Origin: an uncultured archaeon
GTDB taxonomy: Archaea > Thermoproteota > Nitrososphaeria > Nitrososphaerales > Gagatemarchaeaceae
Direction of reading: 5' to 3'
Length of the DNA stretch: 64,000 nt
Assembly: GCA_963799775.1 (NCBI GenBank)
Contig: CAWCYD010000003.1
Span: forward strand, 1,248,001 to 1,312,000
The position numbers and the translations under genes were made by a program. Of the stretch, positions 25,094 through 37,585 are shown in pieces; positions within the stretch are counted from its first letter, which is position 1; every line of letters starts with the position of its first letter. The notes beneath the pieces were generated by a model. That model was not told the origin of the DNA. It ran no database searches and worked only from the letters and a program-made list of their open reading frames with translations.

Positions 25094-25195
25094 GGCCTAT
25101 CCTTGTTTCAAAACGCTCCCGACCAAGTATAGTTATAATGTTTTACGTGGATTGACGACCGGGCCGGGCCGCTTCGATGCTTCGAGGAATCGTAG

Positions 25196-25913
25196 CTATT
25201 CCGAAGTCATCGCTTCAGACCAATGCTTCGAGCTGGCCCAGACCTCTGGAGTGTAAATGTAGTAGGTGAGCTGGTCTGCTTGCTCCTGGCGCTCGATTAC
25301 GTACTTCCTCTTATCAGTTCGAATGTTTTCGATTATTCGGTTTGTGACCGGCCTGGCGCCACCCCGACCTAAGACAATGACAGTGTGATGAACCTGCCCC
25401 TTCGAGCCGTATCTTCAAGGTACGTGCAGTGATCGAAGCGATGTCAACGCTCTTGATGAAAAAGGCGAAGTCCTCAGAGACTTTTAGGAACGAGATGAAT
25501 CTCGACTGGACTTCCCCCGGAGAAGAGTGAATCTTAGCAAGCCGTGTCAACAACTCTGCCACGATACCTCGCTGAGCCAGCTCCGCTATCCGAAGGGCGG
25601 AAGTTCCAAATCTAGTGACAATCTTCTGTCGGAGATCTTCCAGCCTTTCGGGGTGGCTCTCGAGCGATCGAAGAGCAAGTCCCATTTGGATCTGAATGCC
25701 GATTACCCGCTCCTCTTTTGGGACGAACGGACCTATCATCTTCCATTCGGCGGAATTTCTTTCTTGCTTTACGGTGTTGATGTTTTCGCGATCTTTTATG
25801 AACGCGATCTCTTTGTTTTGGAATCTCTTGATTAGTTCGGGTATGCGTTCAACGGTGAATTCGATTACTGCCCCGGCTGCACCTGCGGCAACTTCCTCGC
25901 CGGGTGAGGACAA
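25196..25913 (-). CDS. hypothetical protein (frameshift near 25400)
   Basis: ORF 25314..25913 continues after shift as QVHHTVIVLGRGGARP...WSEAMTSE* to 25196; lower GC. Confidence 0.6.
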
Positions 25914-25916
25914 GCG

Positions 25917-26186
25917 TTATGGGACTTCCCCATATTCTTCCATGTAGGACGCGATGCTGAGCGGATTATCGTCCAAGACGATCGTGCTCCCAGGGAAAAT
26001 CACCATGTTCTCGAGACGGATTGGCTTGTCGATGTATTTGTCAAGGACTCTTTGCCCGTTCTGCGTCACGTAGACCCCTTTCTCATCGACGTCGAATCCG
26101 AGCCCCTTCAGGAGCCTTATCTTGAATTCCTTTGGCGCATCTTTGAAGCTAACTAGTTCCAACTTGTACCCTCCCTCTCCTGGCAA
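25917..26186 (-). CDS. hypothetical protein
   Basis: 89 aa, 3 nt upstream of the previous gene. Confidence 0.65.
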   Translation of the reverse strand: MPGEGGYKLELVSFKDAPKEFKIRLLKGLGFDVDEKGVYVTQNGQRVLDKYIDKPIRLENMVIFPGSTIVLDDNPLSIASYMEEYGEVP

Positions 26187-26457
26187 TAGGATAATGACGA
26201 AGAGTCATCGCGGTATAAAGCTACCGGGGCCGCCTTAAGGTCGCCAATGTCAACCTTGTGTGCCATTTGGGTTAGCATCGGCTCCAGCAGCTCGCCTTGG
26301 TTATGGCTGACACTTCGGAATATAATACTTTTCGAAGATTTCTCATTATAATCATTGTGAAGGGGTAATCCGTTCGACCTGGCGCGTCCCTTAGGCCCCA
26401 TAATTCATGGTTGGGGGCGGCGCTCATAGATACCACTACACCATTTCAATGACTTGG

Positions 26458-26684
26458 ATGGCTCCCTCGCTTACCGAAAGAGACCGTAAAGAGTTGAAAG
26501 AAATCCTCGACAATCCCGCGAGGAGCGCCGAACTCGCTAACAAGACGATTGATGCACGGGTTCTGCAATGACTCGAGTTTCGGAGATACTCAAGAAGGTT
26601 AAGGAACCAATCCTGACTGCAACCTTGCCTTCGAAGAATCCTTTGAAGCAAAGACGTAACGGGGCAGGGGGTCAAACACCTTGA
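26458..26684 (+). CDS. two-ORF cassette X copy 1 (ORF1 26458-26571, ORF2 26568-26684, truncated)
   Basis: MAPSLTERDRKELKEILDNPARSAELANKTIDARVLQ* and MTRVSEILKKVKEPILT..., paralogous to 30497 and 37311 copies. Confidence 0.55.
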
Positions 26685-28081
26685 GTGTGACGATTTCGCT
26701 CCCTTTGATCAACGTCCTCTCTTTCGCGTTGATGGCATTCCCATCTTCGATTACAGTTCGCACGCCGCCTTTCTTGAGTATCTCTCGAACGAGCGGCCAC
26801 GGGTCATTCGGAAGCCGGCTAGCGTTCAGCTGGTCGACCCAAATTCCCGCTTCCTTGGGTTCCATTCCATGCGACGCCTCCCATTCCTTGGATCTGCGTA
26901 TCACATCCGCAATCTTCCCAAGAAGCTCGGTCCATTCAGGAGATTCTTCGTGTGTGTTGTCAATCGTAATGAGGTATTGCGGCGACACCATGATATCGAA
27001 GGGAGCAACCGGGTCAAAATCTCGCAGAAGCCCGGATATCACCGAGTTGTCCTGTGGCGCTGGACTGGCTCCCACGGTCACTTCGACTCGAGGGGTCCAG
27101 CCGCCGCCTTTGAAGTCTATTGCGTTCTTGACGTTGGCCTCGAGCACGTGTTTCCAGGTCGGCTCGCTGGTGTCGATGTAACCTCTTCGCAGGTTCCTGA
27201 ATCTTTGTGGCCAGCTGCTGCGCCGCGTCTCCTACGAACCCCCGCAAGACGTTGCCGCCGTAGAACCCAGCTCCGAGGAGAAGGCCGATTCCCACGGACC
27301 ATATCAGCACGAAAGCCACATTCAGAGGCCCGATTGTGGTGGGATCCAATGTGAGAATCTGGGTGCTGGAGAGAGGATTCTCTGACGGAAATCCGTCGCT
27401 GAAGTAGGCCCATTCAGCATAGCCGAATGCGAACGACAGGAGCGCTATCGCGACACCCGATTGCCAAGATGAGCTGAGCGCCTTGTTCATCCAGAAGGCG
27501 ATGATCAGCGTCATGAAACCAGGAAGGAGGATGAGCGCGAGCGAAACGGGGATCAGGACTCCCCCGAGCGGGAGGCTTGCGGGAGTCGAAGACTGGATGG
27601 AAAGGCTCTCCTGGGCATTCCCAACTGATGAACTCACAAGCAGGAATAGCGTGTATTGACCCGCGGGCGTTCCCGGAGGCACGTTGACCTGGAACTGGAG
27701 GAATTCGGTCCCGTTCGGTTGGAGTGGCAAGAGTGAGTAGCCGAGGGACGAACGTACCGAAGCACTTGAAGCGGAAGAACTGTATTGAACGCACGGATTT
27801 GTATTCAGTTTGGGAACCGTTGGTGTCGAGCCCTGGAGGCTAGAGTTCCAATGCGGAGGAGCAATCAAGCAGATCTGCAATGCGGTCGCGTTCGCTTTTC
27901 CAGTGTTGGAGATCAGAGCGGTCAGTGTGAAATTCTGCGTCTCGAGTACCTGGCTAGGTGAGGCAAATGTCTGGAGGGTTATCCCGTCTCCCGACGCCGC
28001 GTTAGAGGGCAAGAGAGGATACGCAAACAGAGTAGCCACGGTGGAGAATAGAAGGAGGAGCCACCAGCGCCTCACTTCCAT
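26599..28081 (-). CDS. secreted Ig-like (NEW3/CARDB-like) domain + multi-TM membrane protein (frameshift near 27210)
   Basis: Signal peptide MEVRRWWLLLLF, FQVNVPPGTPAGQYTL, three TM segments, cytoplasmic tail in ORF 26599..27147. Confidence 0.6.
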
Positions 28082-28340
28082 GAGGGAAATTGCTGCGGCT
28101 TGCTTAAAGCCTCTCGCACAGGATTCTCGAACGTCTAATGGAATGTGGCTTTTTGAGAGGCAGGCCGCCTCGAGCACGAGCGTGGGCAAGTGGAAGGGCT
28201 GCGAGTACAACTCGGCCTGCCCGAAAGGTTTGTTCAGGCCGCCGTGACTTGAAAGGTCCGATGGCGGCCCTCCATATGTCTCCTGCCGACGAAGGGCTTT
28301 CTCGGGCTTGCTTTTATACTCAAACGCACTAATACAATCC

Positions 28341-28706
28341 GTGTTCTGTCCAAAGTGTGGAACGCAGAACGCGGACGGCGCCGCTTTTTGCGTAAGCTGC
28401 GGCCAGAGTCTTTCCGCAGCGCCGCGAGCAGATTCGGCGGGGCCGTCACTAGGGGACAGGAGCTCGAACAAGAACCCCTGGATCGCGGCGATTCTGAACC
28501 TATTATGGGGCTTGGGCTATGTCTACCTCGGCTTGAAGAAGGTACTGGGAGTTCCGACGATCGTGTTCGTCATCCTGGCGCTCGTCCTCGACATCATCCT
28601 CGGGATCTTCACCGCTGGGCTTGCGAGCCTCGCCTTGGCGATACTGCTCGCGGTAGACGGCTGGCAGAAGGCCAAAGGCGGCAAGGGATTCGTCAGCGCA
28701 GAATAG
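28341..28706 (+). CDS. zinc-ribbon + TM2-like membrane protein
   Basis: FCPKCGTQNADGAAFCVSCG, KNPWIAAILNLLWGLGYVYLG. Confidence 0.85.
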   Translation: MFCPKCGTQNADGAAFCVSCGQSLSAAPRADSAGPSLGDRSSNKNPWIAAILNLLWGLGYVYLGLKKVLGVPTIVFVILALVLDIILGIFTAGLASLALAILLAVDGWQKAKGGKGFVSAE

Positions 28707-28811
28707 GTAGCGGCTGTCCGAGAATCACGTCGCCTATTCCGCCGCCCGATGTGGATGGTCAGAACGGCGCGACCGGCTGTGGCCGAGAAGCCTGCTTCCG
28801 GTGGACGGGGG

Positions 28812-28886
28812 TCATGTCGACAGGTACCTTTCCCCCTTTAGCAGCCTCATCGCCATGATGAAGAGCGCCATGTAGTGTGAGTCCAT
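28812..28886 (-). pseudogene. duplicated 3' end of the NUDIX gene at 30773
   Basis: MDSHYMALFIMAMRLLKGERYLST* vs MDSYYMTLFIMAMRLLKGDRYLSI*. Confidence 0.8.
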
Positions 28887-28956
28887 CCCCTGACGCGAGC
28901 CTCTCTAGACGGACATCGGAAACCTGTATAGCCCTCTGCCGCCCGAGACTATTCCC

Positions 28957-29280
28957 TTGCCGACCTGCCCAAAGTGCGGTAAGTTCATCAGCGAGAGCCA
29001 CTATGAGAGGCACCTCCGGCGCTGCGGCATCGAACGAGATGAAGAGCCTCGGATTACAAGCCAGTCGGTGGCGCGAATGCTCGAAAGCCGCGAGCAACGG
29101 AACGAGCCCGGCCACCCGACCGAGGAGCAACATGCTGGGACCCACGCGGGAACTGACTATCCGCCCGACGAAGAGCCCCGCGGGACGAACTGGACCAAGG
29201 TCGCCGCCTACTTTGTCATATTCCTGCTAATCGGCTCCACCGTGGTCTTCTTCTTGCTCTACTTTCTCTCCGTACTCTGA
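28957..29280 (+). CDS. Y copy 1: Zn-finger (CPKC..H...C) protein with C-terminal TM anchor
   Basis: MPTCPKCGKFISESHYERHLRRC ... NWTKVAAYFVIFLLIGS. Confidence 0.7.
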   Translation: MPTCPKCGKFISESHYERHLRRCGIERDEEPRITSQSVARMLESREQRNEPGHPTEEQHAGTHAGTDYPPDEEPRGTNWTKVAAYFVIFLLIGSTVVFFLLYFLSVL

Positions 29281-29297
29281 GGCGGGGTTCACAGGCG

Positions 29298-29468
29298 ATG
29301 TCCACCTCCCAGACTTTGGAAGAGGAGCCATACGAGTGGGCGTACGACGCCCCCCAGGGCAAGTGGGTCAAGGTCACGGCGAAGAACAGCAACGGGAGGA
29401 AGTGCGGCCGCTGCGGGTGTGCGTGCCCGTGCAACTGCCCCGACTGTCTCCACCATTGCTGCTCGTAG
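29298..29468 (+). CDS. Cys-rich metallothionein-like miniprotein copy 1 (56 aa)
   Basis: MSTSQTLEEEPYEWAYDAPQGKWVKVTAKNSNGRKCGRCGCACPCNCPDCLHHCCS*; below ORF-track cutoff; two paralogs. Confidence 0.8.
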   Translation: MSTSQTLEEEPYEWAYDAPQGKWVKVTAKNSNGRKCGRCGCACPCNCPDCLHHCCS

Positions 29469-29477
29469 GGCGCCTCG

Positions 29478-29664
29478 TCACCTTGAATGGGCGTTGAGGC
29501 AGCGGACCGCCTCGTCGGTGACCAGTATCCGGTCGGCTGTGACCGTCTCCTCGACGGTGAAGGAGACGATCCTCACGAACCGCAGGCCCGCCAGGTCGCG
29601 CGCGGCCACGGCGGTCTGGACTCCTTTCGATGGTGAGCTTGAGCTCGACCTTCTTGTCAGGCAT
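29478..29664 (-). CDS. Z copy 1: 61-aa hypothetical protein (extra A near 29626)
   Basis: MPDKKVELKLTIEGVQTAVAARDLAGLRFVRIVSFTVEETVTADRILVTDEAVRCLNAHSR*, paralog of 36965..37150. Confidence 0.7.
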
Positions 29665-29876
29665 CAAGGCGCGCTTGCTCGGGATACGCCCTAAAGGCCG
29701 GGGCGGACAAGAATTCTTTACCAGGGACTCGGGGCCCCGGACTTCGGGGAAGGTTATCAGAAGGCGTAATCCGCCGCCCAACATTTTTTAGGTCGGAAAG
29801 GTTGCTGCGCGAGAAGAGGGTTTGTCCTCATGCTGAGGAAGAGTCGCTCCCGTGCAGAATGGCCTGGTGGTCCTCG

Positions 29877-30302
29877 ATGAGCGAATCCGATGAAAATGAG
29901 AGGTACTATTCGGCGCTCGGCCTTCCTCCAGACGCCACCTTCGAACAGGTGAAAGCGAGGTTCAGGGAGCTCAACGACGCGTATCTCAAGATACTCGAGC
30001 TGTCGCGGGCGACAAAGGCCGGCACACCCCTTCAGGCCTCCTCGACCGATGAGGAAACAGGCCAACACGCACCGCAACTCGATGCAAATCCAAAGCAGCG
30101 GTTCTCGCCTGCTCCAGAGACGCACACCGAGCCGATATGGAAGCTCAAGGAAAGATTCGCGAAAGGAGGCATTCAGAAAGCCGAGTTCGAGAAACGGGCG
30201 AAAGACCGCTGGAACTATCTCAAGAGCAGACCCTTCAGCGAGCTGACAGACGCCGAATACGAAGAGAGGCTAAAGGGGTTTGACGGGCTGAAGTTTCTAT
30301 GA
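29877..30302 (+). CDS. J-domain-like (no HPD) + SHOCT-like protein copy 1
   Basis: YYSALGLPPDATFEQVKARFRELNDAYLKIL; PIWKLKERFAKGGIQKAEFE. Confidence 0.75.
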   Translation: MSESDENERYYSALGLPPDATFEQVKARFRELNDAYLKILELSRATKAGTPLQASSTDEETGQHAPQLDANPKQRFSPAPETHTEPIWKLKERFAKGGIQKAEFEKRAKDRWNYLKSRPFSELTDAEYEERLKGFDGLKFL

Positions 30303-30496
30303 CGATAGACGCCAAATTTCCGCAACTCCCATGGGGGATGTTTCCTTCTCCCCGGGTTTGTCGTCCGCCCTGCTCGAGACAGGTCTCGAGTCTTATGGGA
30401 AAGGTGGGGAGCCTATATGTTAACCGAGTCTAGCCGCGGAAGCCGGATAGGCGTTTAAATATTGCAAACAGATATTTTGTCGATTAGGTGTGCGAG

Positions 30497-30753
30497 ATGC
30501 TCACAGAAGAAGAGCGAAAGAGAGTCAGAAAAATCCTCGACGACCCGGTGAAGAGCGAGGAGCATGCGAATAGGGCGATAGACGCATGGATCCTCCAGAG
30601 AAAGATCTCCCGGAAATCCTCGAAAAGCTCGAGAAAACCCTGATGAAGCGCATTCCTCTCGCATATGAGAAAAGTCCCGACGACCTCTTCGATGAGCTAT
30701 CGGCGCTGGACTTAGTCTGGTCGTTAAAGGAGAGAATCACGCACAAGGCGTAG
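30497..30753 (+). CDS. two-ORF cassette X copy 2 (ORF1 30497-30643, ORF2 30586-30753)
   Basis: MLTEEERKRVRKILDDPVKSEEHANRAIDAWILQRKISRKSSKSSRKP* and MDPPEKDLPEILEKLEKTLMKRIPLAYEKSPDDLFDELSALDLVWSLKERITHKA*; TTTAAATA upstream. Confidence 0.7.
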
Positions 30754-30772
30754 GCCCCTATGCGAGGGCGTT

Positions 30773-31423
30773 TCAGATTGAGAGGTACCTGTCCCCCTTT
30801 AGCAGCCTCATCGCCATGATGAAGAGCGTCATGTAGTACGAGTCCATCTTTGGGACGAAGCTCCCCTTCGTGACCTCCAGCTTCGCCTCCGTCGCCTTCC
30901 CCGCCCTGTCCCACTCGACCCCCGCCGCCTTGATCTTCTTCGCCCGCCCCGAGAAGAGCCTCAGGCCGTCCCATATCCTCACCTCCACGAGCGCCCGGAC
31001 CTCGAGCGGGTCTACCCTATAGGCCCGGAGCGGCCGGTCGTCCCTGATGAAGAAGACCTCGGCTATCTCCCGCTTCGAGAGCCCGTCGAAGCCCGACACG
31101 TCGACCCGGCTCCCCAGGGGGACGAGCTTCTCCACGCCAGGGGCGATGCCAATCTCCTCCTTTATCTCCCGCGCCACGTCCTCGAGCTGCTCCCCGGCCT
31201 TGTAGTGCCCGCCGACCGTGCTGTCGAGTAGGCCCGCGAAGGTGGGCTTGTCCTCACTCCTCACCTGGAAGATCACCGCCCCGCCCTTCCTTTTCGTTAC
31301 TATCCAGCAGTGGAGGTTGAGGTGCCAGAGGCCCTTCCTGTGGGCCTCGTTGCGCGTGACCACCCCGATCTTCTTCAGGGACTCGTCGTAGACGTCCACC
31401 GGCTCGTCGTCGGGCGATTCCAA
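30773..31423 (-). CDS. NUDIX hydrolase (IDI-1-like)
   Basis: AHRKGLWH, GLLDSTVGGHYKAGE...REIKEEIGI. Confidence 0.88.
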   Translation of the reverse strand: MESPDDEPVDVYDESLKKIGVVTRNEAHRKGLWHLNLHCWIVTKRKGGAVIFQVRSEDKPTFAGLLDSTVGGHYKAGEQLEDVAREIKEEIGIAPGVEKLVPLGSRVDVSGFDGLSKREIAEVFFIRDDRPLRAYRVDPLEVRALVEVRIWDGLRLFSGRAKKIKAAGVEWDRAGKATEAKLEVTKGSFVPKMDSYYMTLFIMAMRLLKGDRYLSI

Positions 31424-31543
31424 TACCGTCTCGCCGAGGTGCTGGCCGCTGATAAACGTGAACTCGACTCTTGCACTGTGAGGTGGCCTGTTGGAGAGGA
31501 CTTTGGAAACACGTATAGGCCTCTGGCCGACCACGACCATTAT

Positions 31544-31750
31544 TTGTCGACCTGTCCCAGGCCCCATTCCTTCCATGCCACCCTGGCGACCCCGCGGACA
31601 GAAAGTCCGGAAAAGGGGGACGACTACGGCCCTCCCAGCCCGGAGCAGGGCGGGATAAACTGGACGAAGGTCGCCGCGTTATTCGTCCTGTTCCTCCTCA
31701 TCGGCTCCTTGGTGATCTTCTTCGTCCTCTACGCCCTCTCGCTGATGTGA
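31544..31750 (+). CDS. Y copy 2: membrane-anchored peptide (Zn finger lost)
   Basis: MSTCPRP...NWTKVAALFVLFLLIGSLVIFFVLYALSLM*; upstream region similar to that of 28957. Confidence 0.6.
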   Translation: MSTCPRPHSFHATLATPRTESPEKGDDYGPPSPEQGGINWTKVAALFVLFLLIGSLVIFFVLYALSLM

Positions 31751-31986
31751 GCGTCAGGGACCCGCTACGGCCAGCGAGCTCCTCGCCCTTTGTGGGCGCC
31801 TCCCAACCCTGAATAATGGGTGGGATAATGGATGGGAGAGATGCGCCCCGCGCGGCTCGTTCCTTTCCTGATGCCTGCGGCCTCGCTCGTCGGCGAATCC
31901 CTGATGTCGCGACAGCTGGACACCCAATCTGGACGTCGGGCTCGCCCTGCCGGTCGCCTTTGGCCTGGCCTTCTGGGGAATCTTGG

Positions 31987-32415
31987 ATGAGCGATACGGA
32001 CGATAGGGAGAGCTACTACGCGACCTTGGGCCTCCCTCCGGATGCCACCTTTGAACAGGTGAAGTCACGCTTCAGGGAGCTCAATGAAGCGTACCTCAAG
32101 ATACTCGAGCTGTCACGAAGCAGCGCAAAGGCCCGTGCGCCCGGTCGACCCGCTCAAGCCGATAACGGCGCTGTTCGGCCCAGTCCGCATCCAGACACAA
32201 ATCCAAAGCAAGGGGCCTCGCCTCCGCAAGAGACGCGCACGGACCCGATAGCCAAGATCAAGGCAAGGCTCGCAAAGGGAGAGATCCAGAAAGCTCAGTT
32301 TGAGAGGCTGGCAAAGGAACGCTACGACTATCTCAAGAACAAACCCTTCAGCGAGTTGACGGAGTCCGAGTTTGAGGAGAGGCTCCATGGGTTTGAGGGG
32401 TTGAAGTTCCTATGA
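31987..32415 (+). CDS. J-domain-like (no HPD) + SHOCT-like protein copy 2
   Basis: YYATLGLPPDATFEQVKSRFRELNEAYLKIL; PIAKIKARLAKGEIQKAQFE. Confidence 0.75.
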   Translation: MSDTDDRESYYATLGLPPDATFEQVKSRFRELNEAYLKILELSRSSAKARAPGRPAQADNGAVRPSPHPDTNPKQGASPPQETRTDPIAKIKARLAKGEIQKAQFERLAKERYDYLKNKPFSELTESEFEERLHGFEGLKFL

Positions 32416-32452
32416 CCTCGGTCGCGCAGCCCGGCGAAGCGTCGGAGCCGGC

Positions 32453-32599
32453 ATGGAGCTCTACGAATGGCTCTATGACAAGGTGGAGAACAAGTGGGTC
32501 AAGATAACTGCGAAGAACATCCAAGGGAGGAGATGCGGCCGCTGTGGGTGCCCTTGCCCCTGCGCGTGCCCGGATTGTCTGCATCAATACTGCTCATAG
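32453..32599 (+). CDS. Cys-rich metallothionein-like miniprotein copy 2
   Basis: MELYEWLYDKVENKWVKITAKNIQGRRCGRCGCPCPCACPDCLHQYCS*; true start may be the ATG at 32412 overlapping the J-like stop (1-nt shift). Confidence 0.78.
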   Translation: MELYEWLYDKVENKWVKITAKNIQGRRCGRCGCPCPCACPDCLHQYCS

Positions 32600-32878
32600 A
32601 ATTCTGTTCTCCCTCTCTAGATTCCTGCTTGCCGGCTCGGTAGTCATCTTATCATCCTCTGCGCGCCTTCCCTAATGTGACGCGCTTGGGCTTCAGAGCA
32701 GTGGCGCTTGGGTGCTGTCTAATCTTCGTTTGGTTTGGCGTGATATGCATTCGGTTCCAAACGGCAACTCGACAGAGCCATTTCTTGGTAAGCCTAAAAT
32801 CAATCCTAGCTGAGAGACGCATCCCTCGCACAAGCGAGAAAGGCACTCGAACGGTAAGATTGTCGTGAGAGTATGAAT

Positions 32879-33112
32879 CTAGGTAGAATGTGCTACTCCT
32901 GCCCTACCCTTGGCTTTTTGACGCAACCTGACATAGAACAGTGTGAAAAACGCCCAACCAAAGGCGAGCGCTGGGACCGCGCGCTCGAGGCTTAGCGAGC
33001 CGAGAACAAAACCGGGTAAACTAACCCCTAAGTAGAGGAGCATCATCAAAACAATGAACTTTACGTATCCTTTAGACGCTATCCAATCCCTGAATCCCGA
33101 GAGCGGGTCCAA
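32879..33112 (-). CDS. small 2-TM membrane protein (candidate immunity protein)
   Basis: 77 aa, starts 6 nt after the halocin-like gene, same low GC. Confidence 0.6.
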   Translation of the reverse strand: MDPLSGFRDWIASKGYVKFIVLMMLLYLGVSLPGFVLGSLSLERAVPALAFGWAFFTLFYVRLRQKAKGRAGVAHST

Positions 33113-33118
33113 GAGATA

Positions 33119-33965
33119 TCACCCATATCCTAATGCTTCACAGGCAGCCGCGCAAGCTGCATCAATGACATCGTATTCCTCTATAACGAAGACTATAACC
33201 ACGGCTGCTAGAATACAGACACCAAATGTGGAGATGATGCAGGCCACGAATACCACAGCTATGGTCACGATCACCACAATCTCGCACACAAGGTCACAAT
33301 CCTGATCCATATCCACCGAAATCGTGCCGCTTACGTTGAGATTCGCAGTTGAACGGGGCAGCATGGCTCCCATTTTTAGAAAGGAGGCCGCCATCAGCGC
33401 GTAGTACGAGCCGAGCTGTCTGATTGTAGAGTTTTGTGAGGCAATGTCTTGGGCAGCAACTATGCCAAGCCCGGCCGCGTTTCCTAGGAGCTGGTTGGTG
33501 AGGGTGGACGTGTAGTTCAAGACGAAGACGTCTCCCAGCTTGAGGTCTCTACCTTTGGGAATGATATTCGCTCCGAGGACTGCCAAGTATCGACTGCTGC
33601 TTGCATTCCGCGCGAGGCTCTCCAGAATCGTGACCGTGTAGGTATTCGCGACCTCAGTGTACTGGAGATAGACAATGCTCGTTCCTTTGGTAGTGCCGAC
33701 CGATGCCATCAGCGTCGATTCTCCTCGACTCAGCGTTGTATTTGAAAAACCTTCCAAGCTTGCCTTTCCGGAAGGGATGCTCGGCATAGTCTGCGGCATA
33801 GAGAAGGGCTTTTCTGAGTTCAAATGAAATGGCGAGTTCATTTCGTACACGTTGCGGATTTGAATAGGCACTTGATTAGTTGCGCCGGAAGCGGGTGTTA
33901 CCGGGTAAGATAAAGACAACAAACAAACCGGCCAGAAAGATTCCGCCTAACTCGCGTATCCTCAA
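33119..33965 (-). CDS. secreted precursor with C-terminal halocin C8-like Cys-rich hydrophobic domain (frameshift near 33921)
   Basis: Signal peptide MRIRELGGIFLAGLF/LLSLSYPVTPASGA; C-terminus DCDLVCEIVVIVTIAVVFVACIISTFGVCILAAVVIVFVIEEYDVIDAACAAACEALGYG. Confidence 0.6.
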
Positions 33966-34088
33966 CGCTTGGGAAAAAGGCGTGAGATAACGATATATGC
34001 GTTCCGTCAAGAATTTCGGTGATTCTTTTGGTTTTCTCCCCAATTTCCGGCTGACCTATGCCATAACCTATGGGACACGCTCCCTAGC

Positions 34089-34288
34089 ATGCTCTACGTC
34101 GAGGACAGGTTCGCGAACTATGTCCCGTTCCTTGAGCTTGTCGCCCTCAGGTGACGAGCAAGGGAGAAGAGGCTACCGCGAAGATGCAAGGCTATGTCCT
34201 GAATCTACAGGATATGCTGGGGAAGACCTACGATGCAAGAGACGTCACGTATGACCTCAAGGTCGACCTCGAAGAAATAATCTGGTGA
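34089..34288 (+). pseudogene. gene fragment
   Basis: Coding-like MLYVEDRFANYVPFLELVALR / VTSKGEEATAKMQGYVLNLQDMLGKTYDARDVTYDLKVDLEEIIW* with a frameshift. Confidence 0.35.
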
Positions 34289-34310
34289 GGGCTGAGCTAG
34301 CGCGAGACCG

Positions 34311-34388
34311 CGCCGTTGGCTTCGTAATCTTCCTGCTAATCGGCACGTTTGTGACCTCTTCGTGCTCTACGGACTTTCGCGGGTGTAG
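34311..34388 (+). pseudogene. Y copy 3 remnant (TM anchor only)
   Basis: AVGFVIFLLIGTFV..FVLYGLSRV* matches the Y C-terminus. Confidence 0.6.
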
Positions 34389-34392
34389 GAGC

Positions 34393-35361
34393 CTAGGGAC
34401 TCGCGAGGGTCAGCGACGTCACGCTCGTCGTTTCGCCGAGGGTGGTACCCTGCTCGCTAATCTGCGTCTGCTCGTATAGGATCATCGTTAGGCCCGTCCC
34501 CTGGACCGTCCCTATGCCCTCGACGAGGTTGCTCAGCGTGGTCCCGCAGTAGGTCAAGGGAAGGGACTTCAGCGTGTAGTAGGTCATCTTCACCTGCGTC
34601 GGCCCGAGGGAGACGGTCGTCGAGTTGAGGACCGCGACGTTCGGGTCAGACACGACCCCGCTCGTGTAGGTGCTCGCGTGGAACAGAATCAAGAAGGACG
34701 AGACGTCGGCCTGACCCATGGCCTCTGCCGAGGCTCCGGTGGAGTTGCCCAGGACCGGCGAGCTCACGCTCGTGGCCGTCCCGTTGGGGGCGAACATGTC
34801 GACTGTGGAGACGTTGAACCCGGTGATGCTCGTCGTGAAGTTCACCTCGTAGTACTCGAGGGAGCCTATCGTGGGCCGTCCGATAATCTGGTAGGACGAG
34901 CTCGTCGCCAAGCCCATAGTCCCGACGATGTTAGATGTCACGGTCATCTGGGAGAAATTCCCGAAGAGCTCGGCCAAAGTCGCGTTTCCGGGGCCCTCGT
35001 TGTAGAGGCCGGTCAGGTTGCCCACCAAAGCGCTGACGGTGGAGTTGAGCTGGGCCATGCTTTCCGTGCTGTTGAACAGGCAGGGAATGGAGGTGGTCGA
35101 AGACGAGCTCGTGCTGGTCGTAATCGGGATCGCGCTGCTCGGCGAGCTCGTCGAGCTCGTTGAGGTAGCGGTGGTCGACATCGAAGAGGTGGAAATGGCC
35201 TCGGTGCTAGAGGAAGACGTGCTTCCGCTGGAAGAAGGCGCCTGTGATAGCGAGAGGACGGCCGCCGCTCCGACGGCAGAGACCCCGATTACCGCTACGA
35301 CGACAAGGGCCAAGACCCTTGGGACGCCTGCGCGTCTGGCCAAACGGGAAGAGTCCGCCAA
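34393..35361 (-). CDS. Ser/Thr-rich membrane-anchored extracellular protein
   Basis: N-terminal TM, S/T linker, many NxS/T sequons. Confidence 0.75.
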   Translation of the reverse strand: MADSSRLARRAGVPRVLALVVVAVIGVSAVGAAAVLSLSQAPSSSGSTSSSSTEAISTSSMSTTATSTSSTSSPSSAIPITTSTSSSSTTSIPCLFNSTESMAQLNSTVSALVGNLTGLYNEGPGNATLAELFGNFSQMTVTSNIVGTMGLATSSSYQIIGRPTIGSLEYYEVNFTTSITGFNVSTVDMFAPNGTATSVSSPVLGNSTGASAEAMGQADVSSFLILFHASTYTSGVVSDPNVAVLNSTTVSLGPTQVKMTYYTLKSLPLTYCGTTLSNLVEGIGTVQGTGLTMILYEQTQISEQGTTLGETTSVTSLTLASP

Positions 35362-35644
35362 GTGCCGGAGTTCAACAGGCGCCGAGCGAACTTATGGGTT
35401 GTGAAGGCCGAATCAATATTCCAGCGGCCAGTCGATGTCTCCAAGTCCAGAGAATGGGAAGGAGCCCAGGGAGAAGATTGTTCCCATATCATAATATCCA
35501 AAACAGACACTTTTGGTCACCTTGCTGAGAGGCCGACCTCCGCATATCCCCATTTTGCCTTTGCCGCAGCGCTAGCGGCAGTCCTCCTAGTCCGAGCGAG
35601 GCAAGTCCCTCGAGGCCGCTAACCGCGAATCATAGACGAGCTCG

Positions 35645-35773
35645 TTAAGACTTGTCGTTCGCCCCCCGTCTTCTACCCCTGACTGCCCGGTCTACCATCT
35701 TCTCGAAAGCCGCGTCGTCATTGAGAAGCCTGTCCAGCTTCTGTAACTCCTTTTTTGTCAGTGGCTTGCTCAA
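35645..35773 (-). CDS. 42-aa distant homolog of cassette X ORF1
   Basis: MSKPLTKKELQKLDRLLNDDAAFEKMVDRAVRGRRRGANDKS*; TATAAAG upstream. Confidence 0.45.
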   Translation of the reverse strand: MSKPLTKKELQKLDRLLNDDAAFEKMVDRAVRGRRRGANDKS

Positions 35774-35889
35774 GGACTTTGCCTCTGGGTCGTCGAAATT
35801 GGAGGTGAGGCCGTCTAATGACTGCCGATTTGATTGCAGTCTTTATACCGAGCTCCGCATCTCGAATGGATTGCAGTTGCGAACCTTCG

Positions 35890-36144
35890 CTAGATCGGCC
35901 CCTTGTGCGCCTTGAGGACCACAGAGCTTGCGGTGCTCCTGATTCCTTTGACCTTCATGATCTTGTGTTCGAGGAGCTCCCTGAAGTCCTCGAGGGTGTC
36001 CACAGAGAATAGCGTCAGGAGGTCGAACTCTCCGGTGACCTCGTAAAGGTGCACAAGGTCTTCGAGCTTGGATAGGGCTACGACTACGTCATCCATCTCA
36101 GGCTTCTCCACAAAGATTTCTACGAAGACCAGGAGACGGGGCAA
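35890..36144 (-). CDS. Lrp/AsnC ligand-binding (RAM) domain protein
   Basis: LYEVTGEFDLL...KIMKVKGIRSTASSVVLK. Confidence 0.88.
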   Translation of the reverse strand: MPRLLVFVEIFVEKPEMDDVVVALSKLEDLVHLYEVTGEFDLLTLFSVDTLEDFRELLEHKIMKVKGIRSTASSVVLKAHKGPI

Positions 36145-36291
36145 CCCTAAACGTCATGCATCGGGGGTCACTTGGTGATATAACTTCCGCGGGGGAGAAG
36201 TACACATGGCGCCACCCTCCAGGCCGTGGCCTGGTGGTCTCATGCCTCTTGTGACGAGGACGCTCGAAGATAGATGGAGGGATCTCTAGAG

Positions 36292-36477
36292 GTGTCAGCC
36301 TCCCAGCCTCCCGAGGGGTCTGAGAAGAACGAGGAGCCATACGAATGGGCCTACGACCAGGCTCAGAACAAGTGGGTCAAGATAACGGCGAAGAACAGCC
36401 AGGGCAGACGGTGTGGTCGTTGCGGGTGTAGTTGTCCCTGCACGTGCGCGGATTGCCTCTTCCAGTGCTGCTCGTAA
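36292..36477 (+). CDS. Cys-rich metallothionein-like miniprotein copy 3
   Basis: ..EEPYEWAYDQAQNKWVKITAKNSQGRRCGRCGCSCPCTCADCLFQCCS*. Confidence 0.8.
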   Translation: MSASQPPEGSEKNEEPYEWAYDQAQNKWVKITAKNSQGRRCGRCGCSCPCTCADCLFQCCS

Positions 36478-36526
36478 CTCCGTTGCGCCCATTTCGCGAC
36501 CCAGGAAGGGCTCCACGCTGGACGCT

Positions 36527-36838
36527 TTAGCTGGTGAGAGTGAGCTCTATCTTTACGTCCTCGGGAATCGAAAGCTTCGTTATCTGCCTCATGGCCCTGT
36601 CGTTCGGCTCCACATAGATGAGCCTTCTGTGAATCCTGAGTTGCCAGTGGTCGAACGTGTGGGTACCCTCGCCCGTTGGGGCTTTCCTAGTGGTAATCTT
36701 CAGCGTCTTGGTTGGCAGAGGCTGCGGGCCCACGCTCTTGACGCCCGCCTTGTCCGCGATATCCTTAATCTCCCAGGCAAGCCTGCCCAGCTCATTAAGG
36801 TTGGAGCTGGTCAGCTTGATTCTCGCATACTGTGGCAT
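36527..36838 (-). CDS. rpsJ: 30S ribosomal protein S10 (uS10)
   Basis: ARIKLTS, GPQPLPTK.LKITTRKAPTGEG, WQLRIHRRLI. Confidence 0.95.
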   Translation of the reverse strand: MPQYARIKLTSSNLNELGRLAWEIKDIADKAGVKSVGPQPLPTKTLKITTRKAPTGEGTHTFDHWQLRIHRRLIYVEPNDRAMRQITKLSIPEDVKIELTLTS

Positions 36839-36964
36839 TGTCTTTGGGACTCGCGTCTAGGCTTGCTACTTAGGCCTTTGCCAAATCGCCCGCGAGATCC
36901 TGCAACGAAGGAATACGGACGCCCCATGCCTCGATCGGAGCATCTCCTGGCTAAGGCCGTTGGT

Positions 36965-37150
36965 TCATCTTGAAGGAGGGTTCAGGCAACGCACTTCCTT
37001 GCTGGTGACAAGCACCCGGTCGGTCGTGACCGTCTCTGTCACTGTGAAGGACACCATCCTGACGAAGCGCAACCCCGAGATGTCCCGCTCCGCGAAAGCG
37101 ACCTGCACCTTCTCGACGGTGAGCTTGAGCTCCACCATCTTGTCCCGCAT
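36965..37150 (-). CDS. Z copy 2: 61-aa hypothetical protein
   Basis: MRDKMVELKLTVEKVQVAFAERDISGLRFVRMVSFTVTETVTTDRVLVTSKEVRCLNPPSR*. Confidence 0.72.
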   Translation of the reverse strand: MRDKMVELKLTVEKVQVAFAERDISGLRFVRMVSFTVTETVTTDRVLVTSKEVRCLNPPSR

Positions 37151-37310
37151 CAACCCTCGAATGCCCCAATAACGGCCTAATGGCGGCCACAGACAAGAAA
37201 TCTATACCAGAGGCTCAGGCCCCGCGTCAGCCTGCGGCCAAGGACCCAGGTTGCGAGAGCTATGCCGCCATGGCCGCTTAAATTCAACGACGCACTGTCT
37301 GGCCATTTGG

Positions 37311-37585
37311 ATGACCTCCTCGCTTACCGAAAGAGACCGGAAAGAGTTGGAAGAGATTCTCGCCGACCCCGTGAAGAGGGCAGAGCTAGCCAACAGGGCG
37401 ATTGATGCGTGGGTTCTTCAGGGGCTTCCAAAGTCGAGACGATCCTCAAAGAACTCGAAGAAACGCTCCTGACGCGCATTCCTCTCGCCTACAAGAGAAG
37501 CCCGGAGCGATTCTTCAGAGAACTCTCGACGCTTGAGATTGTGTTAGGGATTAAAGAGAAATTGAGGCACAGTTCGCCGCAGTGA
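37311..37585 (+). CDS. two-ORF cassette X copy 3 (ORF1 37311-37472, ORF2 37409-37585)
   Basis: MTSSLTERDRKELEEILADPVKRAELANRAIDAWVLQGLPKSRRSSKNSKKRS* and MGSSGASKVETILKELEETLLTRIPLAYKRSPERFFRELSTLEIVLGIKEKLRHSSPQ*. Confidence 0.7.

Follow-up and report, generated by a model that had tools for sequence, protein, structure and literature searches.

Between 26.4 and 37.6 kb of a 64,000-nucleotide (nt) stretch of an archaeal genome (G000:C3:1248001-1312000, hereafter the window), several families of very small genes, which we designate CysRich, Xa/Xb, Y, Z and J, recur in diverged copies together with a NUDIX gene. We believe, at a probability of about 60%, that the locus is a lineage-specific paralog cluster that grew by local duplication in several separate events, perhaps with import of some copies from congeners, and that each event was followed by decay. 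It is a plastic stretch in the otherwise conserved neighbourhood of an apparently non-ammonia-oxidising soil archaeon of the Nitrososphaerales, and what was duplicated were small genes, each self-contained and equipped with its own promoter, and not one operon-like unit. The locus can be seen as ordinary archaeal genome growth, in which small promoter-bearing genes duplicate in place, after which the copies are retained, altered or lost. What makes it valuable is the material that it exposes, the two mini-gene families CysRich and Xa/Xb, both of which are in no domain library and are mostly below the usual annotation length cut-offs.

The assembly of the genome under study, G000, consists of 2.47 Mb in three contigs (GC content 0.59), of which C3 is 2.06 Mb long, and its completeness by marker genes is 82%. 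Its placement in the Nitrososphaerales follows from the source organisms given for homologs and from a eukaryote-type topoisomerase IB at a relative's locus. We compared it with 22 other genomes of the same genus. A search for the amoA gene (PF12942) gave matches in four other families of the order but none in the 25 genomes of this family, G000 included, so the lineage appears not to oxidise ammonia.

The repeats are real. A repeat search of the 25-39 kb segment detected nine direct-repeat families, self-blastn returned 10 pairs (identity 70-93%, E 3e-10 to 2e-69), and profile hidden Markov models (HMMs) built from the locus copies and their orthologs recovered every named copy except a supposed J remnant and Xb1, which had no match to the Xb HMM. 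Significant similarity thus connects several genes of one locus, as in a tandem or segmental paralog cluster. The identity between copies at the DNA level is 61-81%, and 93% for the NUDIX fragment. CysRich and the Xa/Xb pair are present in three copies each, Y in two and a remnant, J and Z in two, and NUDIX in one copy and a 75-nt fragment. Several copy assignments made in the initial annotation of the sequence had to be corrected. The gene called X there is in fact two overlapping genes, Xa and Xb; an 'X-like' gene is indeed an Xa relative, but it is a solo member of another Xa subfamily (35645-35773); and the J remnant placed near 36242 scored no better in alignment than 300 shuffles and was not matched by the J HMM. 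Outside the locus, CysRich and J have no copy elsewhere in assembled G000, while Xb has four further copies (six Xb matches in total), Xa has one weak match, Y is matched via its zinc-ribbon N-terminus only, and Z has one distant relative, on contig C2.

The similarity extends upstream of the genes. The regions preceding the Z copies (29627-29737 and 37113-37223) are 74% identical, and those preceding the Y copies (28907-28953 and 31495-31541) align with a score of 37 compared to a maximum of 23 in 300 shuffles. The upstream similarity noted in the initial annotation is thereby confirmed, and its conservation in both families indicates that the promoters were copied along with the genes.

The fate of the copies differs from family to family. 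All three CysRich copies are intact, whereas Z1 carries a 1-nt insertion outside any homopolymer that shifts the frame, Xb1 is degenerate and Y2 is internally deleted, so the initial impression that the copies mostly stay open is true for only a part of them. Most pairs are under purifying selection: the ratio of non-synonymous to synonymous substitution rates (dN/dS, Nei-Gojobori estimates throughout) is 0.04-0.16 for the CysRich pairs, with dS of 1.1-3.3 that is near saturation, 0.27 for J1-J2 (dS 0.9), 0.19 for Xa of the first and third cassettes (dS 0.73), 0.20 for Z1-Z2 (dS 1.04) and 0.34 for the membrane part of Y (dS 0.83). Xb, which is partly dual-coding with Xa, gives 0.63 (dS 0.74). 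By these values the copies of CysRich, J, Xa, Z and Y are constrained genes. Compared with the full gene, the NUDIX fragment has one synonymous change and six that are non-synonymous (dS 0.058, dN 0.12); one change in 18 synonymous sites has a binomial probability of 7e-5 against a proportion of synonymous differences (pS) of 0.5. Set against dS of at least 0.7 elsewhere, this dS indicates a much younger event or a conversion, with the fragment decaying freely.

In the initial annotation a six-gene unit, X-NUDIX-Y-J-CysRich-Z, was held to have been amplified about three times and then pruned, and to represent one co-functioning stress or metal-response system. Local amplification and subsequent pruning are borne out by the duplicates and the broken copies. 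The copying of a six-gene unit is not: the copies are neither collinear nor of one age, their start-to-start offsets are family-specific and range between 1961 and 7487 nt, a third copy is missing for J, Z and NUDIX, the NUDIX fragment is younger, and the gene trees disagree. Units A and B have X-NUDIX-Y in common, but then continue with Cys-Z-J in A and with J-Cys in B, and unit C shows yet another order that includes the gene of ribosomal protein S10. In the trees, J1 and J2 are sisters (support 97/96), although J1 evolves approximately three times faster than J2 (end branches of 0.36 and 0.11). CysRich1-3 in a 16-row nucleotide tree form a weak group (73/71) that also takes in the genes of G013, G006, G008 and G015, which are single-copy there; the end branches are 0.20-0.23 for CysRich1-3 compared to 0-0.12 for these single-copy genes. 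A tree that unites CysRich1-3 in one clade is rejected by the approximately unbiased (AU) test.

The related genomes also speak against a single system. CysRich is present in 13 of the 22 congeners, always as one copy, Xb-like genes in 16, often in several copies, Y (full-length or its membrane part) in 8-9, the orthologous NUDIX gene in seven, Z in three, and full-length J in three (G006, G017 and G018), where no other family lies within 10 kb of it. None of the 22 congeners has the six families together, and they are no conserved multi-gene system in this genus. G017 does possess all six, with Z, Y and NUDIX within 12 kb, but its CysRich gene lies 190 kb away from these next to a copy of S10, J is found on other contigs and Xb at a different site; in G006, five families are distributed over three contigs. 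The neighbours of CysRich in the eight congener loci scanned are mutually unrelated (among them PriX, a NUDIX gene, a cNMP-binding gene, GNAT, a methyltransferase, PIN, KaiC, a CAAX protease, MFS and a eukaryote-type topoisomerase IB), and Y is its neighbour in only 2 of the 13 congeners. Family orientation and spacing also vary among the relatives. The families are therefore mostly unlinked in relatives, which is the finding that the initial annotation itself had named as counting against co-function. The sharing of X-NUDIX-Y followed by Cys and J in units A and B, the constraint on the copies, the presence of all six families in G017 and the pairwise adjacencies seen in relatives (Y-Cys in G013 and G006, NUDIX-Z in G006, and NUDIX-Y at 1.3-10.5 kb in G018, G022, G016 and G017, i.e. 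in four of the seven relatives with orthologous NUDIX) can be cited in favour of one system. Faced with the dispersed cassettes of Xb, the solitary J and the discordant ages and trees, we nevertheless regard such a system as quite unlikely. A stress or metal role is hinted at by the cysteine pattern of one family alone, and co-duplication in one genome does not establish a co-functioning system.

What the relatives do share is the neighbourhood. Its backbone, comprising EF-2, DUF1684, o113 and o368, is single-copy in G000. In G016 EF-2 (95% identical), NUDIX, o113, Y, o132, Xa and o368 are found within 17 kb, once each; the corresponding neighbourhood of G017 contains EF-2, NUDIX, o132, o368, Y and Z, and that of G018 contains NUDIX, Y, o132, the gene for a 322-aa (amino acid) protein and an Xa-like/Xb pair. 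In G013 the Y-CysRich genes are 4.3 kb from EF-2, and in G006 they are near o368 and DUF1684. Because the small genes recur in this genus-wide backbone, they can be considered native residents of the neighbourhood that were locally expanded in G000.

Several observations nevertheless weigh against a history of separate local duplications. The X-NUDIX-Y order common to units A and B makes at least one multi-gene block duplication likely, and the 'separateness' of the duplications is a matter of degree. The loose NUDIX-Y-Z-X-o132 linkage in four to five relatives could mean function instead of inherited synteny. The Z tree gives no resolved branching, and the gene trees in general are built on 141-432 columns and few taxa. 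Since G000 is 82% complete, the statement that a family occurs only in this locus is valid for the assembled part of the genome. A further difficulty is posed by CysRich: its three copies are about as distant from each other as from the orthologs in other species, so in situ duplication would need an old multi-copy ancestor and repeated losses, or else import.

The latter possibility can be extended to the locus as a whole, most of the extra copies then being xenologs acquired by recombination with other species of the genus and not in-place duplicates. The AU test rejects one clade for CysRich1-3 (p-AU 0.0065), and at the nucleotide level each of the three is about as close to a congener gene (81% to G006, 79% to G008 and 78% to G006, respectively) as to the other two. 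Z1 and Z2 are each nearer to G022 than to each other, and two low-GC inserts show that foreign DNA was taken up. On the other hand, J1 and J2 are sisters, the remnants and the variant with an in-frame deletion are consistent with duplicates that went on to decay, neither mobile-element genes nor att-like repeats were seen at the locus, and alignments as short as these fail to tell an old duplication from a transfer. For most of the extra copies we therefore consider a xenologous origin unlikely, and retain local duplication, with possible import of some copies, as the preferred explanation.

The low-GC patches at 25100-26400 (GC 0.507) and 32650-34300 (0.511), compared with 0.596 for the window, contain orphan open reading frames (ORFs), and indicate that the segment also takes up foreign DNA. 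The second of them contains the insert initially described as halocin-like, which is matched by no family above threshold; the C-terminus of its 267-aa orphan (33119-33922, minus strand) is Cys-rich and hydrophobic. Together with the variable neighbourhood and the many small self-contained genes with their own promoters, these patches could suggest a mobile element or an integron-like cassette array. This is very improbable. As already stated in the initial annotation, no integrase, transposase or attC-like repeat was seen: none was found in the 28 ORFs searched against Pfam, which contain no recombinase either, or by the repeat search. PADLOC recognised none of 20 proteins, PHROGs gave weak matches only (NUDIX, o132, J1 and J2), and no tRNA, Rfam family or attC-like intergenic repeat was found at the locus. 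The flanking backbone, moreover, is syntenic in relatives, where the same small genes are resident.

An artefact, i.e. a chimeric join of co-occurring strains or species, has to be considered for a metagenome-type assembly in which the copies differ about as much as the species of the genus do. The only sequencing runs that contain part of the stretch are labelled as soil metagenome, with no RNA run listed among them, and one DNA run contains 14% of the sampled words. The three runs examined gave only short contigs (150-300 nt) of low depth, which in the soil run X1 cover 18 of 30 bins; no contig spans the locus, and no joints were reported. A contig of 244 nt from run X1 matches 32370-32613 exactly, across the J2/CysRich2 junction, and several further parts of the locus are matched exactly by other short contigs of this run, which is weak but consistent evidence for the assembly. 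The same run yields a short contig over the NUDIX gene (30812-31117) that has 13 differences and a depth above that of the exact-match contigs; a related strain or species apparently lives in the same habitat. This variant can be cited in favour of a chimera; the backbone genes, however, are unduplicated, the copy order differs, fragments and pseudogenes are present, and the contig is 2.06 Mb long. Hence an assembly artefact is highly improbable.

Under the duplication scenario, unequal recombination between repeated genes, for example between the three co-oriented X cassettes, would yield the copies, and in each pair one copy would retain the ancestral role while the other would drift or die. 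Gene duplication has been described as a major driver of genome expansion in the Nitrososphaerales (PMC7603488), and our locus resembles the cases treated in the parts of that study considered here in being a local family expansion in a soil member of the order, with families that one lineage has duplicated but that others have once or have lost. The difference is that those parts deal with genome-wide counts and with carbohydrate transport and coenzyme genes, whereas here unnamed genes of 37-142 aa are duplicated within 11 kb. As duplication has already been reported in the order, the locus may be taken as a new example of a known process.

Table 1. Features of the duplicated locus and its single-copy residents (positions within the window)
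Feature	Position	Strand	Basis
Xa1, 37 aa, without basic tail	26458..26571	+	Xa HMM E=5e-27; 81% nt identity to Xa3 over 114 nt; stop overlaps Xb1 start (ATGA)
Xb1, degenerate: internal deletion and altered C-terminus	26568..26684	+	DNA alignment with X2 and X3; translation; no Xb HMM match
o132, zinc ribbon and membrane protein, single-copy native resident	28308..28706	+	Pfam Zn_Ribbon_1 35.9 bits; homologs of 62-68% identity in same neighbourhood of G016, G017, G018
NUDIX 3' fragment, 75 nt, pseudogene remnant	28813..28887	-	89-93% nt identity to 30773-30848
Y1, 107 aa, N-terminal zinc ribbon and C-terminal transmembrane (TM) helix, TTG start	28957..29280	+	Y HMM E=1e-48; orthologs in G013, G006, G022, G018, G007
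CysRich1, 56 aa, 9 Cys in last 21 residues	29298..29468	+	HMM, translation
Z1, frameshifted (1-nt insertion after about codon 14)	29478..29663	-	Alignment with Z2; Z HMM match confined to positions 16-62; conservation continues upstream to 29737
J1, 141 aa, J-domain-like N-terminal helices without HPD, SHOCT-like C-terminal part	29877..30302	+	Pfam SHOCT 16.9 bits, below cut-off
Xa2, 48 aa	30497..30643	+	HMM, alignment, translation
Xb2, 55 aa, 58-nt overlap with Xa2 in -1 frame	30586..30753	+	Xb HMM E=4e-35; overlap analysis
NUDIX hydrolase, longest ORF	30773..31576	-	Pfam NUDIX (PF00293) 33.8 bits, cut-off 21.1
Y2, 68 aa, promoter, TTG start and TM helix kept, zinc ribbon deleted in frame	31544..31750	+	Y HMM covers positions 30-92
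J2, 142 aa, conserved copy	31987..32415	+	67-69% aa identity to J of G018, G006, G017; Pfam DnaJ 18.7 bits, below cut-off
CysRich2, 48 aa, 8 Cys in last 21 residues	32453..32599	+	HMM, translation
Low-GC insert, two orphan ORFs (77 and 267 aa), outside every repeat family	32879..33922	-	No family above threshold; no second copy in genome
Y3 remnant, 96 nt, TM part only	34321..34416	+	75.5% identity over 98 nt to Y2, E=3e-10
Secreted or membrane protein of 322 aa, rich in Ser/Thr, native resident in single copy	34393..35361	-	74% aa identity to G018 gene beside Y, o132 and Xa-like/Xb
Solo Xa, other subfamily, without Xb partner	35645..35773	-	Aligns with cassette Xa of G018, G019 and G000 C3:619 kb; 59% identity to G018 Xa-like
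Stand-alone Lrp/AsnC ligand-binding domain protein, 84 aa	35890..36144	-	Pfam AsnC_trans_reg 50.8 bits, no helix-turn-helix (HTH) part
CysRich3, 67 aa, 9 Cys in last 21 residues	36274..36477	+	HMM, translation
Ribosomal protein S10, one of two genome copies	36527..36838	-	Pfam Ribosomal_S10 82 bits
Z2, 62 aa, intact, with conservation upstream as far as 37223	36965..37153	-	76-82% aa identity to Z of G022, G017, G006
Xa3, 53 aa, basic tail	37311..37472	+	HMM, alignment, translation
Xb3, 58 aa, GTG start within Trp codon of Xa3, 64-nt dual-coding overlap	37409..37585	+	HMM, overlap analysis

CysRich is an unnamed family of the Nitrososphaerales. The 8-9 cysteines of its C-terminus are arranged in CxxC, CxC and CC spacing, and in 24 diverse members six Cys columns are invariant and three more are at least 90% conserved. 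The N-terminal half is conserved as well and forms an aromatic beta-hairpin that resembles one Kelch blade motif; the AlphaFold2 (AF2) model consists of this hairpin and an irregular Cys tail, with a predicted local distance difference test (pLDDT) score of 69. A profile of 14 sequences matched 33 representatives at E<=0.001 among 1.84 billion proteins. Twenty of the 22 matches that were fetched are small (53-151 aa) and contain the hairpin and the Cys motif, and the two long ones are Kelch-repeat proteins in which only the hairpin is matched. The hairpin (36340-36390 in CysRich3) matches single Kelch blades of P0006 and P0026, and nine stretches of the Kelch-repeat protein P0006 are matched by it. 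A wider profile collected 44 clusters, which, where named, are hypothetical proteins of Nitrososphaerales or Nitrososphaeraceae metagenome-assembled genomes (MAGs); it matches 14 of 201 genomes of the order and none in two families sampled 40 deep. In G154, which belongs to another genus of the same family, two CysRich genes are located 2 kb apart (C14:25428-25601 on the plus strand and 27307-27474 on the minus strand), so duplication of the family is not unique to G000.

The dense conserved cysteine motif is of the kind found in metallothioneins, and CysRich is likely a small protein that binds metal via its cysteine cluster. This metal-thiolate role we infer from the Cys pattern alone. Metallothioneins undergo tandem amplification, as exemplified by yeast CUP1, and the Cys-dense C-terminus and the three constrained copies in one locus make CysRich similar to them. 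At the same time it differs in its aromatic N-terminal hairpin and in having no match to metallothionein models: no Pfam metallothionein family was matched by the 24 members at E<=10. A sequence profile search of the PDB yielded no matches, Foldseek with the CysRich model found nothing in the PDB at E<=0.001, and the best ESM Atlas scores for CysRich3 and Z2 (0.79-0.80) were within the range of shuffled sequences. A full-text literature search on archaeal or Thaumarchaeota metallothioneins and cysteine-rich proteins returned no relevant title among the matches listed. Two other assignments were rejected. As a precursor of a ribosomally synthesised and post-translationally modified peptide (RiPP), CysRich has no maturase-like neighbour in G000 or in the loci of eight relatives, and its Cys core is conserved and not variable; a link to copper via ammonia oxidation was discarded on the amoA result given above.

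The second family is the Xa/Xb cassette, two overlapping co-oriented genes. For each of the 13 Xb genes inspected beyond the locus, an Xa gene lies upstream and overlaps it. In most cassettes the two genes share about 60 nt, with up to 154 nt recorded, and the shared bases code at once for the basic tail of Xa and for Xb's acidic start. Xb usually starts inside a conserved Trp codon of Xa, with a start codon in the Xb frame in 14 of 15 cassettes. Programmed frameshifting was rejected as the main model for the pair: the offset is -1 in 11 of the 15 cassettes and +1 in four, and no common slippery site was seen in them. Xb is predicted by gene callers as a protein in its own right, of 51-62 aa, and it forms at least 139 clusters in Nitrososphaerota/Thaumarchaeota MAGs, none of them named. 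Two natural in-frame Xa-Xb fusions (P0126 and P0168, 99 and 73 aa) tie the two halves functionally. Modelled by AF2 without an alignment, the fusion P0126 is all-helical with a pLDDT of 61, only the Xb hairpin being moderately confident; the predicted complex of Xa with Xb had a score of 0.01 and was not used as evidence.

We consider Xa and Xb likely to be a two-protein addiction-like or regulatory pair, to judge from their arrangement and composition. As in type II toxin-antitoxin systems, the genes are small, co-oriented, overlapping, multi-copy, dispersed and often degenerate or solo, and one product is basic-tailed while the other is acidic and helical. They differ from such systems in belonging to no known family (there is no match in PADLOC, Pfam, PHROGs or NCBIfam, and hence no toxin or antitoxin family to which they could be assigned), in the size of the products (only about 37-60 aa), in the dual-coding overlap of about 60 nt, and in the existence of single-chain fusions, which toxins and their antidotes would not normally show. 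A more ambitious scheme would combine both families: CysRich would be an undescribed archaeal metallothionein analogue (a beta-hairpin with a Cys9 metal-thiolate knot) whose copy number was raised for metal dosage or specialisation, the amplification being seeded by unequal recombination between Xa/Xb, itself a new Nitrososphaerota-wide addiction-like overlapping-gene cassette with its dual-coding overlap of about 60 nt. Taken as a whole, this scheme is speculative and unlikely.

J combines two partial resemblances. Its DnaJ match of 18.7 bits is below the cut-off of 27.8 and covers profile positions 1-26 of 63, and its middle part matches SHOCT positions 1-24, also below the Pfam cut-off. J-domain proteins require the HPD motif; in J1 and J2 no HPD is visible at the expected position, and neither contains a complete J domain. 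The C-terminal 30 residues are common to other proteins of 145-250 aa across the genus. J is likely to be a J-like/SHOCT-like adaptor. The NUDIX domain is above the curated Pfam threshold, while the IPP isomerase and YfcD models are matched only weakly, with scores that do not reach their cut-offs; the product is likely a nucleotide-diphosphate hydrolase. Alignment with the orthologs in the seven congeners (60-90% identity) begins only at about residue 51 of the long ORF, and the true start is probably near 31426.

Y is likely a tail-anchored membrane protein with a zinc ribbon. A promoter-like motif is located about 25-30 nt before its TTG start and recurs in G013 and G006; its presence in the three species suggests that Y transcripts may be leaderless and start with TTG. 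Z belongs to no family described in Pfam, PADLOC, PHROGs or NCBIfam, nor, for Z2, in the ESM Atlas. Its distant relative in G000 is a Z-like ORF (35% identity) at G000:C2:128835-128996, some 5 kb away from the second S10 gene. This recalls the window, where S10 and Z2 are adjacent, and may be the trace of an older segmental duplication.

The second S10 (G000:C2:123816-124124) encodes a protein 82.5% identical to that of the window, and neither gene adjoins the EF-1alpha candidate (C3:297845). Two to four S10 matches occur in 8 of 23 genomes of the genus, G000 included, and the single-contig genome G007 has three. The gene initially annotated as Lrp does encode the Lrp/AsnC ligand-binding domain, but as a stand-alone protein of 84 aa that lacks the HTH part; its paralogs are located at C3:276259 (65% identical) and C3:1949770 (43%).

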